The notes under the pieces: model-generated | Databases searched by the model: none | What the model was told of the DNA's origin: nothing | What the model saw: only the letters and a program-made list of their open reading frames with translations | Made by a program: the position numbers and the translations under genes | Sequence record: MH243438.1 | From: Escherichia phage vB_EcoM_NBG1 | Strand: one strand, 5' to 3' | Length of the DNA stretch: 64,000 nt | Part shown: piece by piece, positions 55,307 to 60,581 of the stretch | How positions within the stretch are numbered: position 1 is the first letter of the stretch | Layout: each line of letters begins with the position of its first letter

Positions 55307-55966
55307 ATGGCAACACCAAAAGTATCATTTTCGCCTAGTGATATTCTATTTGGGTTGCTAGATCGTATTTTCAAAGATAACGCTACTGGAAAGGTTTTAA
55401 TGTCCCGAGTAGCGGTAATTATTCTTTTGTTCCTAATGGCACTAATATGGTACAAAGGAAGTATTTTGCTGGATTATTATGTAAGAGCTAAGTATGATAC
55501 TTATACTGAAATAATCCAAAAAGAACGAGCTTTACGTTTTGAATCTGCGGCTCTAGAACAACTGCAAATAGTTCATATCTCATCTGGTGCAGATTTTAGT
55601 GCTGTGTATTCTTTCAGACCTAAAAACTTAAATTATTTCGTCGACCTTATAGCTTATGAAGGCAAACTACCTAGCACAATTTCTGAAAAGTCCCTTGGCG
55701 GATTCCCAGTGGATAAAACGGCTAATGAATATATAATTCATTTAAGTGGCCGTCATTTCTCGTCTAAATCAGAATTTGCATTTTTGCCTACAAAATCTAA
55801 GACTGCCGAACTTTCTTATATGTATAGTTGTCCATACTTTAATTTGGATAACATCTATGCTGGAACTGTGACGATGTATTGGTATAAGGGGAATAATATA
55901 CTTGAGGAAGATCGCTTAGCGGCTATATGCAACCAAGCGGTCCGAATACTAGGAAGGGCTAAATAA
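55307..55966 (+). CDS. t: Holin T
   Basis: 219 aa; SFSPSDILFGLLDRIFKDNATGKVL... and C-terminus ILGRAK match T4 T holin; late promoter 55279-55286. Confidence 0.96.
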   Translation: MATPKVSFSPSDILFGLLDRIFKDNATGKVLMSRVAVIILLFLMALIWYKGSILLDYYVRAKYDTYTEIIQKERALRFESAALEQLQIVHISSGADFSAVYSFRPKNLNYFVDLIAYEGKLPSTISEKSLGGFPVDKTANEYIIHLSGRHFSSKSEFAFLPTKSKTAELSYMYSCPYFNLDNIYAGTVTMYWYKGNNILEEDRLAAICNQAVRILGRAK

Positions 55967-56239
55967 TTAGTTGTTAGAATACATCGCTAAATGACGATAA
56001 ATATTTTCAAAACCTTCATTGAATTCACTAATCAGTGTTTTCTTTTCTTCGGCAGTTAAATTTGTAATTAGTTTTCTAAAAGAATTCTGATTTAGCTGCC
56101 GACCATCTTTTTTAATTCCAATCTCATTCAAGAATCCGATGAAACTTGCTCGGTCTTCAACAATATCTTCCCTAGAGAATTTAATCAAAATAGAAGCAAT
56201 AGTAATAATTTCACGTACGATTTCAATGTCTTTATTCAT
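55967..56239 (-). CDS. asiA: Anti-sigma-70 protein AsiA
   Basis: 90 aa; VREIITIASILIKFSREDIVEDRASFIGFLNEIG...NQNSFRK matches remembered T4 AsiA; early promoter at 56271-56304. Confidence 0.95.
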   Translation of the reverse strand: MNKDIEIVREIITIASILIKFSREDIVEDRASFIGFLNEIGIKKDGRQLNQNSFRKLITNLTAEEKKTLISEFNEGFENIYRHLAMYSNN

Positions 56240-56270
56240 AACGTTTTATTCATTCCACTTAATTGATAGG

Positions 56271-56304
56271 AGTATAGTACCATTATCAGTGTTGATTGTA
56301 AACG
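56271..56304 (-). promoter_or_regulatory. T4-type early promoter upstream of asiA
   Basis: GTTTAC -35 and GGTACTATACTC -10 on the - strand. Confidence 0.6.
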
Positions 56305-56447
56305 GCTTTTTCTACGCTTTTAACGTAATTAGTGTAGTCTTCCTGTTCATACGAGTGTAAGACCAAGAATTGAACTAATAGTTCATTATAGACTAAAGCC
56401 TCACGCTCACGTTCGGCCTCTACTACGTTCTGAAGATTATGACTCAT
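56286..56447 (-). CDS. Hypothetical small protein
   Basis: 53 aa from ATG 56447, downstream of the arn-like gene. Confidence 0.4.
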   Translation of the reverse strand: MSHNLQNVVEAEREREALVYNELLVQFLVLHSYEQEDYTNYVKSVEKAVYNQH

Positions 56448-56736
56448 ATCGTTCCTTATAACTATCAATATAGTCCTGTATGTCGAAAAACGACATTTCA
56501 TATTCTATGACGTTAAGAGCCCGTTCTTCAGTATAGTCAGAACCAAAGACGATAGTGATTTCGCCAGGCTTCATGTGATTGAAATCGACACTAAAAGGAA
56601 TACGAGAACATACTTCGTCTGCCATATCTACGATAACACTACGACACACTTCTCGGTTAACCTGATAAAGCTCTGCAAGTTCTTCACATCGAATAACAAG
56701 TTCAGTGGCAGGATTTTCTTTGATTTTAGTAAGCAT
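56437..56736 (-). CDS. Acidic protein, possibly Arn-like anti-restriction (McrBC inhibitor)
   Basis: 99 aa from ATG 56736; acidic composition and position between asiA and motA as for T4 arn. Identity not verified. Confidence 0.45.
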   Translation of the reverse strand: MLTKIKENPATELVIRCEELAELYQVNREVCRSVIVDMADEVCSRIPFSVDFNHMKPGEITIVFGSDYTEERALNVIEYEMSFFDIQDYIDSYKERYES

Positions 56737-56819
56737 AGTCTTTACCCTTATGTTTTTGTTTGCGTTTAGATTGAAGTTCTGATTTCTTTTTGTCTTTATG
56801 GACGGAAGCCTTATTGAAA

Positions 56820-57038
56820 TCATGTTTTGCTACAAGATTGTTCATAATGATTTATAACCTCGTTTAAACATTTGTCTGTGAAAGAAAACTTTTTAGCCAC
56901 AGAACATTCGATAATGTGCTCTTTCAAATCTTTAGAGTCAGTATAACCCATCTCAGTAATAAAGTGGCGAATTAAAGCTTTATTCTTATCATTAACAGAA
57001 TTAAAATAATCTGCTTTAGAATCAATTATTCTCATCAT
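56820..57038 (-). CDS. Hypothetical protein
   Basis: 72 aa ORF. Confidence 0.45.
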   Translation of the reverse strand: MMRIIDSKADYFNSVNDKNKALIRHFITEMGYTDSKDLKEHIIECSVAKKFSFTDKCLNEVINHYEQSCSKT

Positions 57039-57303
57039 CTAATTTCCTTAATTGATATTGCAACGAGCCAATAATTTCTTCGTTCATTTTAATATACATG
57101 TCACGCAAGAAAGGTTTTAACCCATCACGAATAATTGCTAACGTATCACCTTTACATAAATTAACCAAATAAGGATGGTCTAAAGCATCCCAACCAGGCT
57201 GATTAGCATACATACCATAATTTTCTTCCATCATAGCATTCAGGCGTTTGATATGATTAATGTGGGCTTCAATAGCATCAATCTGGAGTTGTTTAAGATT
57301 CAT
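57022..57303 (-). CDS. Hypothetical protein
   Basis: 93 aa ORF. Confidence 0.45.
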   Translation of the reverse strand: MNLKQLQIDAIEAHINHIKRLNAMMEENYGMYANQPGWDALDHPYLVNLCKGDTLAIIRDGLKPFLRDMYIKMNEEIIGSLQYQLRKLDDENN

Positions 57304-57764
57304 TAGTAAAGGTCCTCAGAGTAAAGTTCTTTTTCATTACCACCACGTTCAATACGTACTTGTCCAGCGTAAGTTGCAATAATCATTGCTTCTTCACGTG
57401 TCCAATAATTACTATATTGGTCAATAAACCCTTGGTCATCATCACAAACTTGTTGAGTAACTAATTGAGGTTTAACTACATCTAAAACTTCTGCCATATC
57501 TTTAGAATAATGACGAGCACCTGGAATAATAAGAGTTCGTCCATCTTTTAATTTAAAACGGTTGGCTGCGCAGACAATTCGTCGTTGATACTTTTGGTTT
57601 TCATCCCAATACAGAGTCTGCCAACAGATTTCAGGAACTTCATCTAAAACATTTTGTTCTGTATATTCACCACCGTAAGAAGCTAATTTAGCAGCCAGAC
57701 TTTCCGGAGTCTCACGCGACAAAGCTTTATCTAACAGAGCTAAACGTTCTTTAAAAGTTTTCAT
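57303..57764 (-). CDS. Hypothetical protein
   Basis: 153 aa ORF, coupled to neighbours. Confidence 0.5.
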
Positions 57765-58105
57765 TTAAACCATCCTTTAATACGTTGCCAAATAGATTTT
57801 TGTGCTTGTTTATTAACACCAATTGAACGAATAACCGGTTGTGACTGCTGATATTCTTTATAATCTTCTTTATAGATTTCGTAAGCTGCATCAACAAATG
57901 AACTGATCGCTGCCATAAAGTTTTTACGTATACCACCAGGAGCTACTCCATTAGGGAATTCGGAATTTTCTCGAATAATTAAATATAACCCAGCTCTAAC
58001 TTTAACGATAGTTCCAAGATAAGCCCCGTGGTACCAAATATCCCATCCTTCCTGAGTAGGTTCTGCACATTTACGAAGTTCGTTAATAATATTCAGCTTA
58101 TTCAT
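57761..58105 (-). CDS. Hypothetical protein
   Basis: 114 aa ORF immediately downstream of motA. Confidence 0.5.
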
Positions 58106-58115
58106 TATGTATTCC

Positions 58116-58748
58116 TCACAGTACGTTAGTTACAAGGGTAATGATTTCTTTGGACACATTAGGGAAGTCAATGTAGGTATATTTACCACCGATCTTAATC
58201 TTAACATCATTTTCAAGAGAAGTAAACAGCTTTGATTCAGTTTCTGACATATTGTATGCAAAGATTCTAAGAGCGCCATCTCGACGAATTTCGATCTGAC
58301 GAATACCTAGAACTCGTTTTGCAAATCGAACTTCTAAGTTACTACGGTTTTCACCAATTTCTTTAACTTCAACTTTATCTTTAATATTTTCAAAAACAAA
58401 GTTTGCTAATTCATGCATTTCAGGAGTAACTCCACGTGCTTTTCTGGTGTTACGTTTCTGAAGAAGTTCTGGAGCATTTTCTTGGGCAAAGAGGTCTGCA
58501 GCTTTTTGGATAATATCCATTGCTTCGCCTGTTGCTATAAGTCCATCACCGGATTTTTCGACTAAACCTTTCTTAATCAATACACCAATGTTAGAGTTAA
58601 CAACTGATGCGTTGTATTCTGCTTCCAGAGCTTCACGGACATTGGCAGCAGTGGTGAAGTTGTTCTTAATGATATAAACCATTATTGCAGCAGTTTTTTC
58701 ATTCAGAACGTTTTCAGAAGCTTTGATGATGTAAGTAACTTTAGACAT
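58116..58748 (-). CDS. motA: Middle-promoter transcription activator MotA
   Basis: 210 aa; MSKVTYIIKAS..NVLNEKTA...VVNSNIGVLIKKGLVEKSGDGLI matches remembered T4 MotA; early promoter 58782-58815. Confidence 0.95.
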   Translation of the reverse strand: MSKVTYIIKASENVLNEKTAAIMVYIIKNNFTTAANVREALEAEYNASVVNSNIGVLIKKGLVEKSGDGLIATGEAMDIIQKAADLFAQENAPELLQKRNTRKARGVTPEMHELANFVFENIKDKVEVKEIGENRSNLEVRFAKRVLGIRQIEIRRDGALRIFAYNMSETESKLFTSLENDVKIKIGGKYTYIDFPNVSKEIITLVTNVL

Positions 58749-58781
58749 TTTATTTCTCCAAATTAGTACTTGTTTTGATAG

Positions 58782-58815
58782 GTCTATAATATCATGTTTG
58801 AAGCAAAAGTAAACT
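58782..58815 (-). promoter_or_regulatory. T4-type early promoter upstream of motA
   Basis: GTTTAC -35, 17 nt spacer, GATATTATAGAC -10. Confidence 0.65.
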
Positions 58816-58852
58816 TTATTTTGGGCTCTTTTTCCAAAAGCCCTGGTAAAAT

Positions 58853-59068
58853 TTACAAACTCATTTCTTTAATAAGGCCAATAAGTTTTGCCTTTTTAGA
58901 ACGAAGCTTTTCTAAACGATGACCATTTGAACCGCGAACCACCAAAGAATTGATTTCAACTTCTAAGAAATTTAATTCTTCAACAAGTGCTTTACGGGGA
59001 GCATTCATACCAGGTTTAACTTTACCGAAACGAGTAGTTGTGTTTTGGGTTAATTTCATTTTAGACAT
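58853..59068 (-). CDS. Hypothetical small basic protein
   Basis: 71 aa; has its own early promoter; 5' leader and first codons nearly identical to motA (see findings). Confidence 0.55.
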   Translation of the reverse strand: MSKMKLTQNTTTRFGKVKPGMNAPRKALVEELNFLEVEINSLVVRGSNGHRLEKLRSKKAKLIGLIKEMSL

Positions 59069-59103
59069 TTTATTTCTCCAATTTGGTTGTTTTGTTTTGA
59101 TAG

Positions 59104-59137
59104 GTCTATAATATCATGTTTGAAGCACGTGTAAACT
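59104..59137 (-). promoter_or_regulatory. T4-type early promoter (duplicate of the motA promoter module)
   Basis: Near-identical copy of the 58782-58815 module, upstream of the 71 aa ORF. Confidence 0.65.
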
Positions 59138-59255
59138 GTTTTGTGAGGAAAAAATGCACAAAAGGGAGCTTCGGCTCCCTAATCATGTTTGTCCAACCAA
59201 TACAGCCAAATCACTAGTGCAGCTATTGCACCGAGAAATCCTAAGGCTAGGGCAC

Positions 59256-60581
59256 TCAAAGTGCCTCCAAGTCTTTAGTGTACTCTGTCACAACATCAGT
59301 AGACTTCCAATACTCATTTTCTTCTTTCTTAGCTTTAGCTTCTTCTGCTAGTTTACGTGCTTCATCGGAAGTGATATGGAAGATGTTAAGACCTACCAGT
59401 TTATCGACATGTTCTTTATACATTTCGATTTGTGCTAGCTCTTCAGTCAAAGCTTTACGAGTCTTGCCCTGAATCACAATTTCACCGTTGATAACTTTTT
59501 TGATGAAGTGCGCCTTAGCAAAAGCAAGTTTAAATGCTTTTTCAGATTCAAGGATTTTGTTGTCAATACGTTTCTGAACGTAAGTCTTACGGACTTCAAC
59601 AAAATCTTTGATTAAGTCCACTACGTTATCGTAGACAGCTAATTTACCCTTTTCATTAATCACTGTGATGTTTTGTGAACGACGTTCGATGAGACTAAAA
59701 TCTTTCATGATTTTTTCATGACGTAGCTCTTCATCACCAGGAAGCGAGTACTCTTTACGGAACTTCACCTTAAACCCAAAGCCGTGTTCACCACAATCAT
59801 CTTCCCATGAGATTAGACCTTTGTCTTCCAATGGGTCAAGAACCTTACTCACGTACGTTTCACGGTCGAATTTATATGGGATTTCAGTTATCTGCATTTG
59901 AGTGCGAGATGTGAACTTATATGTTCCGTGAATCTCATAACGCCCATCAACTTCATGTACTTCACCACGGAATTCCGGGAATTCAACTTTTGGCTTAGTG
60001 ACATTTTTACCTTGAAGAGCTTGTAATACAGCCTTTTTTACCGATTTAAAACTATGAGGCAGAATATTTGTTGCGTAACCGGTTGCAATACCAGAGACAC
60101 CATTCAAAAGAACTGTCGGAATAATAGGAAGATAGAATTTTGGTGGAACGTGTTCTTTATCTTCATGAGCTGGAGCATATTCAGTATCTTTATATACGTT
60201 ATAGAAATTTTTACTTACACGAGCAAAAATATAACGAGATGCTGCAGCTTTTTGGACTGTTCTAGAACCAAAGTTGCCTTGGCCATCTAACAGTGGATAG
60301 TTGTTGTTCCATGTGTTAGCCATTAATGCACCTGCATCTTGTGCAGAAGATTCACCATGGTGATAACCTAAATCTGCAACACCGCCTGCAATTGACGCAA
60401 GTTTATGAAATTTTTCTTTATTACCACGAGCCAAATCTAACGCACGATGAACCACAAAACGTTGAACCGGCTTAAATCCATCAATCATGTTTGGGATTGC
60501 ACGGTTTTCAACGGTGTACATCGCATATGCTAAGGCTTCGTTATCAATAATACTTTTTAGATTACGAGAATTCAATTGCAT
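59256..60581 (-). CDS. 52: DNA topoisomerase II medium subunit gp52
   Basis: 441 aa; MQLNSRNLKSIIDNEALAYAMYTVENRAIPNMIDGFKPVQRF... matches remembered T4 gp52. Confidence 0.96.
   Translation of the reverse strand: MQLNSRNLKSIIDNEALAYAMYTVENRAIPNMIDGFKPVQRFVVHRALDLARGNKEKFHKLASIAGGVADLGYHHGESSAQDAGALMANTWNNNYPLLDGQGNFGSRTVQKAAASRYIFARVSKNFYNVYKDTEYAPAHEDKEHVPPKFYLPIIPTVLLNGVSGIATGYATNILPHSFKSVKKAVLQALQGKNVTKPKVEFPEFRGEVHEVDGRYEIHGTYKFTSRTQMQITEIPYKFDRETYVSKVLDPLEDKGLISWEDDCGEHGFGFKVKFRKEYSLPGDEELRHEKIMKDFSLIERRSQNITVINEKGKLAVYDNVVDLIKDFVEVRKTYVQKRIDNKILESEKAFKLAFAKAHFIKKVINGEIVIQGKTRKALTEELAQIEMYKEHVDKLVGLNIFHITSDEARKLAEEAKAKKEENEYWKSTDVVTEYTKDLEAL

Follow-up and report, generated by a model that had tools for sequence, protein, structure and literature searches.

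Which roles do the three small genes directly downstream of motA play in Escherichia phage vB_EcoM_NBG1, and does any of them act against bacterial defense? We pursued this question in a 64,000-nucleotide (nt) stretch of the phage genome (MH243438.1), hereafter the window, which comes from a Mosigvirus, that is, an RB69/JS09-like T-even phage. The genes concerned are three open reading frames (ORFs) encoding 93, 153 and 114 amino acids (aa), which an earlier note on this DNA had reported as a coupled block at positions 57022-58105 and had put forward, by association with their neighbors, as candidate anti-defense or host-takeover factors. All three were present on the minus strand at these positions. 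A 2.9-kb stretch around the block matched 757 phage records and was 98.2% identical to Escherichia phage vB_EcoM_JS09.

The three ORFs correspond to T4 arn.2, arn.3 and arn.4

The earlier note had proposed a comparison with T4 arn.1 to arn.4, and this comparison identified the three ORFs, at the level of their sequences, as the Mosigvirus version of T4 arn.2, arn.3 and arn.4, with the neighboring 72-aa ORF as arn.1. In BLASTP and tblastn searches, the 93-aa protein was only 40% identical to T4 Arn.2 (E = 2e-20), the 153-aa protein was 83% identical to T4 Arn.3 (E = 5e-96) and the 114-aa protein was 75% identical over its full 114 aa to translated T4 DNA (E = 2e-58). The T4 counterparts (PHROGs 1844, 839 and 1594) share order, strand, coupling and place between arn.1 and motA with the window genes, and the same arrangement from arn.1 to motA, on the same strand, was seen in the annotated regions of mar005P1, F31, T4, Bas35 and Bas38.

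Read along the minus strand, motA is followed by arn.4 (57761-58105), arn.3 (57303-57764; phrog_839, E = 1e-72), arn.2 (57022-57303; phrog_1844, E = 2.5e-41), the 72-aa ORF, two more small ORFs and asiA. The start of arn.4 lies 10 nt past the motA stop codon, and the coupling claimed in the earlier note is borne out by overlapping start and stop codons, ATGA between arn.4 and arn.3 and TAATG between arn.3 and arn.2, followed by a 17-nt overlap of the arn.2 end with the 72-aa ORF. Coupled in translation, arn.4, arn.3 and arn.2 thus follow one another right after motA, and they count among the genes of the non-essential early/middle 'arn operon'. Each of the three proteins has a PHROG family (E between 1e-41 and 1e-73) and between 22 and 157 homologous protein clusters, and all three are conserved at the protein level while third codon positions are near saturation. 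Judged by these comparisons, the ORFs are real genes. Searches of all three proteins against Pfam-A, NCBIfam and the sequences of the Protein Data Bank (PDB) gave nothing significant, in agreement with the statement of the earlier note that no motif could be assigned; precomputed Pfam assignments place them in placeholder families that take their names from the T4 proteins (PF26819, PF26092 or T4_Y16D, and PF26821).

The N-terminus of Arn.3 is related in sequence to the antitoxin CmdA

A PADLOC search revealed a single strong match, in which residues 1-30 of Arn.3 aligned with positions 1-30 of the 77-position model PD-T4-9_B (E = 1.2e-8). PD-T4-9 is CmdTAC, a toxin-antitoxin-chaperone system that a P2-like prophage carries in its variable region and that aborts T-even infection (PMC9519451, PMC11618068). 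Its toxin, CmdT, is an ADP-ribosyltransferase acting on mRNA; its antitoxin, CmdA, consists of an N-terminal helix pair and a long, unstructured tail with LAA as its last residues; and CmdC, a SecB-like chaperone, shields CmdA. Induction of cmdTA by arabinose kills E. coli (PMC11618068). The system is triggered when the T4 major capsid protein displaces CmdC, upon which ClpP/ClpXP degrades CmdA and CmdT is freed (PMC11618068).

For a direct comparison, the cmdTAC locus was recovered from an E. coli genome via a published primer and its CmdA was used as the query. CmdA starts MLSFEQRMALLNKALQQYNPESLYEKLSSYPA, and over residues 1-32 of Arn.3, 17 positions were identical (53%) and 24 similar (75%; BLASTP, E = 3e-9). 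Over 20,000 composition-preserving shuffles, the score never exceeded 45, compared with 83 for the actual sequence (z = 15.3). In tblastn searches with CmdA, the sole match in the window fell at 57764-57675 (E = 4.6e-7), and 298 of 50,697 phage records were matched. Sampling 40 rows along the ranking of these 298 records, we found that 39 were T4-like phages or vibriophages and that, among the sampled rows, the annotated T4-like matches fell at the 5' end of arn.3. Similarly, 21 of 117 long members of the Arn.3 family matched PD-T4-9_B (best E = 2.5e-10), and no other PADLOC family was matched. Together, these comparisons show the first ~32 residues of Arn.3 (the N-module; 57669-57764, minus strand) to be homologous in sequence to the N-terminal helical pair of CmdA. 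The two modules are just 51% identical at the nucleotide level, which argues for an old relationship that has been kept at the protein level.

The likeness ends with this module. An AlphaFold2 model of Arn.3, with a mean predicted local distance difference test (pLDDT) score of 91 and a predicted template modeling score of 0.82, comprises a hairpin of two helices (residues 4-14 and 20-28), a third helix and a compact alpha/beta domain. CmdA and Arn.3 thus share ~30 N-terminal residues with two predicted helices, whereas the disordered chaperone-addiction tail of CmdA is replaced in Arn.3 by a confidently folded domain (residues 41-153; pLDDT 91-98), and the match to the profile hidden Markov model stops at position 30 of 77. 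The C-termini differ likewise: CmdA ends in DLAA, an Ala-Ala ClpXP degron, whereas Arn.3 ends in LYSEDLY, a terminus kept family-wide. Finally, the cmdA gene adjoins the genes for CmdT and the SecB-like CmdC, whereas arn.3 adjoins neither; it belongs to a lytic phage, and in its product the module is joined to a folded domain of 113 aa.

CmdT and CmdC were absent from the window altogether (tblastn, E > 0.9). Among the 50,697 phage records, CmdT was found in only one, a 34.6-kb Vibrio phage that is not T4-like; T-even phages encode none. As neither the T-even phages nor the window hold a CmdT, the N-module of Arn.3 appears to be an orphan antitoxin-like element. The CmdT homologue of the single exception, Vibrio phage 10N.286.54.F9_PE001 (PQ189358.1, 10715-11278), is 42% identical over its full length, and this phage presumably carries a CmdTAC-like system. 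No structure of CmdT or CmdA was found in the PDB. With respect to the earlier note, the homology to CmdA gives Arn.3 a direct sequence link to a defense system and is a better basis for the anti-defense reading than guilt by association. In the case of Arn.2 and Arn.4, association is all that this reading retains.

Modular architecture of Arn.3 and the T4_Y16D family

The C-terminal core of Arn.3 (residues 41-153; 57306-57644, minus strand) belongs to T4_Y16D, the family (PF26092) to which all 157 clusters homologous to Arn.3 are assigned and whose minimal form spans 85-95 aa. A profile search of 1.84 billion representative sequences returned 3509 clusters at a threshold of E <= 1e-3, of which 1431 also passed E <= 1e-10. 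A scan that covered 185,579 species of bacteria and archaea, with one genome per species, returned two loci only, both on contigs of metagenome-assembled genomes, and the family is therefore essentially phage-specific. Residues R84-H85, Q111-G-F-x-D115, R123, Q135 and S149-E150 were conserved across 117 diverse members. The predicted fold has no solved structural relative, and similarity to macro, NADAR or ARH folds was not detectable.

Most T4_Y16D proteins are stand-alone domains of 85-110 aa that lack the N-module. Where long N-terminal extensions exist, Pfam and PADLOC scans recognized only the CmdA module and, in one member, a ribosome modulation factor domain (Pfam RMF, E = 9e-6). By inspection of their sequences, other members have Zn-ribbon-like or transmembrane N-termini, and several carry two T4_Y16D copies. 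The N-module, in turn, occurs on different partners. It is joined to T4_Y16D in Erwinia phage FBB1 and Klebsiella phage SAKp28, whereas in Vibrio phages QD01 and 184E37.1 a CmdA-like module, with a match reaching 'SYPAxGPT', sits on two other, unrelated C-terminal regions. A 203-aa protein (P0007) from a 170.6-kb T-even-type genome carries two N-modules in tandem, one window-like and one T4-like, on one T4_Y16D core. This distribution identifies the N-module, on sequence grounds, as a mobile unit.

The two parts of Arn.3 also differ in their divergence. Between the window and T4, the T4_Y16D core is 96% identical at the amino acid level, 97% at the nucleotide level and 96% at third codon positions, compared with 47%, 63% and 53%, respectively, for the N-module. 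The neighboring genes are 50-77% identical in nucleotide sequence between the two phages, which indicates that the core was recently exchanged between genera. The arn.3 core (57306-57644) appears as a sharp recombination mosaic, the 5' boundary of which coincides with the junction of the two protein modules. When the window is compared with Bas35, the N-module is 80% identical in amino acids, 72% in nucleotides and 47% at third positions; the excess of amino acid over third-position identity indicates that this module is under purifying selection. Taken together, the pattern points to two Arn.3 modules that recombine independently, with an allelically diverse N-module.

A decoy antitoxin as the tentative role of Arn.3

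We tentatively propose, with a probability of roughly 0.4, that Arn.3 is a degradation-proof decoy, or surrogate, antitoxin for CmdT-family toxins. Its N-module would bind CmdT-family ADP-ribosyltransferases as CmdA does, and the T4_Y16D domain, taking the place of tail and degron, would render Arn.3 chaperone-independent and protease-resistant. Once host CmdA has been destroyed, Arn.3 could then keep CmdT neutralized and protect the infection. Early or middle expression would be expected from the place of arn.3 after motA and from the T2 transcript data described below. Specificity would be allele-dependent, a given Arn.3 protecting against matching CmdT variants only, because it is the N-module that varies and recombines within arn.3. 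The orphan character of the module fits this proposal, since Arn.3 has the toxin-side module in common with CmdA but lacks the parts that confer chaperone dependence and degradation.

Phages are known to supply such substitutes. T4 Dmd stands in for the antitoxins RnlB and LsoB against the toxins RnlA and LsoA, and pseudo-ToxI of phage PhiTE is another surrogate; the logic proposed for Arn.3 is the same, in that a stable phage-encoded stand-in for a labile host antitoxin keeps the toxin inhibited. To our knowledge, Dmd is not homologous to the antitoxins that it replaces, whereas Arn.3 shares sequence with its would-be cognate, CmdA. The targets would differ as well, with an RNase in the case of Dmd and an mRNA ADP-ribosyltransferase in the case of Arn.3. 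A related tether-plus-eraser scheme, in which the helices of Arn.3 dock on CmdT-type enzymes and T4_Y16D binds nicotinamide adenine dinucleotide (NAD) or ADP-ribose, or strips ADP-ribose off RNA, seems improbable to us; under this scheme, the T4_Y16D member with the ribosome modulation factor domain would hint at an action at the ribosome or on mRNA. DarG of the DarTG system, which combines a toxin-binding part with a second domain able to undo ADP-ribosylation, offers this scheme an analogy only; it uses a macrodomain, and T4_Y16D has no detectable macro similarity.

Several observations weigh against the decoy proposal. The assignment of CmdT binding to the helices of CmdA was reached by elimination, and the text of the CmdTAC paper does not state it. 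Moreover, CmdTAC of ECOR22 cuts the plating of 10 out of 12 tested Tevenvirinae of the BASEL collection 100- to 100,000-fold, neither Mosigvirus isolate of this collection is among the two insensitive phages, and a second CmdTAC blocks T4, T6 and new Tequatrovirus isolates. As most T-even phages remain blocked, Arn.3 is insufficient against the CmdTAC systems studied so far. The N-modules of the insensitive phages Bas35 and Bas38 are no closer to CmdA than that of the window, no correlation between Arn.3 allele and insensitivity was seen for these two phages, and T4 escape mutants map to alt.-3, not to arn.3 (PMC11618068). Lastly, T4_Y16D probably has a function of its own that the decoy model does not cover, given its strongly conserved polar residues and its occurrence mostly without the N-module. 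The ECOR22 system was, however, isolated by selection for T4 resistance, which favors an allele against which T4 has no remedy. Even so, any action of Arn.3 on CmdT must be allele-specific or partial.

The main rival explanation, which we regard as possible but rather doubtful, takes the N-module to be a shared ancestral helical handle with another job, such as oligomerization or docking to Arn.4 or a host factor. The real activity would then reside in T4_Y16D, a phage-specific binder or enzyme that is directed at nucleotides or RNA and has no part in CmdT neutralization. This would account for the many T4_Y16D proteins without the CmdA-like module and for those with unrelated N-termini, for the conserved residues, which resemble a ligand-binding or active site, and for the continued sensitivity of T-even phages to CmdTAC; the adjacency of Arn.4 and Arn.3, kept in FBB1, SAKp28 and EcS1, fits it too. 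It leaves unexplained, however, why, among all PADLOC families, the module matches just a defense antitoxin (E = 1e-8), and why lytic phages carry it on three unrelated C-terminal domains and in duplicate. The opposite direction of borrowing, in which CmdA took an Arn.3-like N-terminus from a phage and the likeness serves defense by sensing or competing rather than serving the phage, could draw on the location of CmdTAC, since the hypervariable region of the P2-like prophage that houses it collects phage-derived genes, and the 51% nucleotide identity of the modules shows neither direction nor age. We nevertheless consider it very unlikely: CmdA is needed for folding and neutralization of CmdT, and binding of the capsid protein to CmdC explains activation (PMC11618068), which makes a role for a phage-like N-terminus unnecessary, and many lytic phages carry the module, on scaffolds that differ among them.

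Two further explanations concern the whole block. In many GenBank records, every arn.x gene bears the label 'anti-restriction nuclease', the operon is shared with arn in T2 and T4, the neighborhood points the same way, and Arn.2 and Arn.3 are mildly acidic, all of which would suit Arn-type anti-restriction or host-takeover factors such as DNA mimics or nuclease inhibitors. We judge this quite unlikely, as none of the three proteins resembles T4 Arn in sequence, the labels have most probably spread from the gene names and from the PHROG description of arn.1 (the PHROGs of arn.2 to arn.4 read 'unknown function'), and the block is kept in the window phage although arn is absent. The isoelectric points (pI) are 5.2 for Arn.2 and 4.9 for Arn.3, compared with 4.55 for T4 Arn, whereas the basic Arn.4 (9.4) counts against this explanation; charge by itself does not identify a DNA mimic, and a structural match did not turn up. 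That the ORFs are instead dispensable ORFans without a selected function in current hosts is highly implausible. Functional or essentiality data for arn.2-arn.4 were not found in the sources examined, and the T4 reference arn.4 has ATA in place of a start codon; yet amino acid identity across genera lies well over third-position identity, residues are invariant and the genes are kept in hundreds of genomes. Compared with these explanations, the decoy antitoxin remains the reading that we prefer for Arn.3.

Arn.4 and Arn.2

Arn.4 has 53 homologous clusters and comprises a conserved N-terminal alpha+beta domain (residues 1-47) and C-terminal helices; its structural model is of medium confidence and resembles only generic small alpha+beta proteins, which is uninformative. 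Its gene keeps its place beside arn.3 in distantly related T4-like phages, too. The conserved protein measures 109-114 aa, whereas the annotated T4 protein of 68 aa begins at an internal Met and leaves out the N-terminal 47 residues, the most conserved part. In the window, arn.4 starts with a normal ATG (58103-58105), as it does in Bas35 and Bas38, whereas the T4 reference reads ATA at this codon (L003, 3455-3457). Going by these sequences, T4 may be a natural arn.4 start-codon mutant. In Bas35, which is not restricted by CmdTAC, an extra 51-aa ORF lies between arn.4 and arn.3 (L014, 8841-8996).

Arn.2 is the fast-evolving member of the block, with 22 close clusters, all assigned to PF26819, and at least two allelic forms whose distribution does not follow genus boundaries. 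Of these, the window carries the RB69-type allele, which the Tequatrovirus Bas38 has together with a 99-aa replacement of Arn.

Two weak PADLOC matches were set aside as probable chance hits. Arn.4 matched REase_II (E = 0.0016), as did 10 of 33 homologues, none with a better E-value, and Arn.2 matched Hp1 (E = 0.004), with no match from the diverged Arn.2 proteins of T4 and SAKp28. No plasmid homologues of Arn.2 or Arn.4 were found by tblastn. Both remain T-even-specific orphans, linked to defense by association alone; we assume that they may serve as co-expressed accessory or counter-defense factors of the same operon.

Neighboring genes and expression signals

The earlier note had placed the block between motA and an arn-like gene and had counted arn among the block's neighbors. 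The motA side held up, with motA at 58116-58748 on the minus strand (Pfam MotA_activ, E = 1.8e-40; MotCF, E = 2.2e-8). On the other side, the 72-aa ORF (56820-57038, minus strand; phrog_4452) is the orthologue of arn.1, not arn. Its product is 79% identical to T4 Arn.1 as annotated (43 aa), and tblastn puts the identity across its full 72 aa at 71%. No homologue of T4 Arn, an anti-McrBC DNA mimic of 92 aa, was found in the block or anywhere in the window (blastp and tblastn, E > 2). Unlike that of T4, the operon of the window therefore ends without arn. T4 DNA encodes the same 72-residue stretch as the arn.1 of the window, possibly from a TTG start (L003, 2175-2393), and this reading frame extends into the 70-nt 'intergenic region' between T4 arn.2 and arn.1.

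The slot of T4 arn is occupied in the window by an acidic 99-aa ORF (56437-56736, minus strand; phrog_8202, E = 1.9e-54; pI 4.4) without similarity to T4 Arn. The same ORF is present in Bas38, where it is labeled 'Arn' despite this lack of similarity. It is overlapped by a basic 39-aa ORF (56726-56845, minus strand) that is 79% conserved in T4 DNA but unannotated there.

A transcript of motA, arn.4, arn.3 and arn.2 could start upstream of motA at a sigma-70-type promoter-like site (58786-58813, minus strand; TTTACT-16-TATTAT, preceded by the TG of an extended -10 element). A strict MotA-box promoter was not found at 57000-59300, nor a relaxed MotA-box pattern in the block, nor a convincing terminator between motA and the block; co-transcription of the arn block with motA is plausible from the sequence. 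Rfam returned no RNA family at 55900-59300.

In phage T2, arn.4-arn.3-arn.2-arn.1-arn form a single abundant transcript, and the host small RNA ArcZ pairs with the 3' end of arn.2, stabilizing this transcript against RNase E (doi 10.64898/2026.06.19.733364). Because the 70-nt region holds the ArcZ and RNase E sites of T2, these may lie inside or at the start of the longer arn.1. The ArcZ target at the T4/T2 arn.2 end, CCAGGGAAAT, reads AAGGAAAT in the window (57040-57060), where 6 contiguous pairs are left. For this pairing we used what we take to be the ArcZ sequence, which agrees with the coordinates given for T2. In the window phage, the reduced ArcZ site coincides with the Shine-Dalgarno sequence of arn.1.

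Implications for T-even phages

The genes arn.2-arn.4 have been known in T4 for decades without a function. In the literature searched, the 2026 T2 preprint was the sole paper to mention them; it gives the functions of arn.1 to arn.4 as unknown and 'conceivably' counter-defense (doi 10.64898/2026.06.19.733364). No mention of a link between Arn.3 and CmdA was found in the same literature. The genes as such are already known, and what is new here is this link, together with a large, nearly phage-only domain without a solved structural relative. The homology to CmdA turns a guess at counter-defense into a specific question about CmdT.

T4_Y16D is a large, almost phage-confined family, and its fold, although predicted with confidence, has no match among solved structures. 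Should Arn.3 both dock on CmdT-type enzymes and act on ADP-ribose, the ~3,500 clusters of this family would constitute unrecognized viral enzymes or sponges directed against nucleic-acid ADP-ribosylation or translation-targeting immunity. If Arn.3 is a decoy antitoxin, toxin-antitoxin-chaperone systems and mRNA ADP-ribosyltransferases would each have their first viral inhibitor in it: a lytic phage would have copied the toxin-binding part of an antitoxin and traded its degradable tail for a stable domain. Such a decoy would also provide a handle on the allele-specific host range of T-even phages used in therapy.

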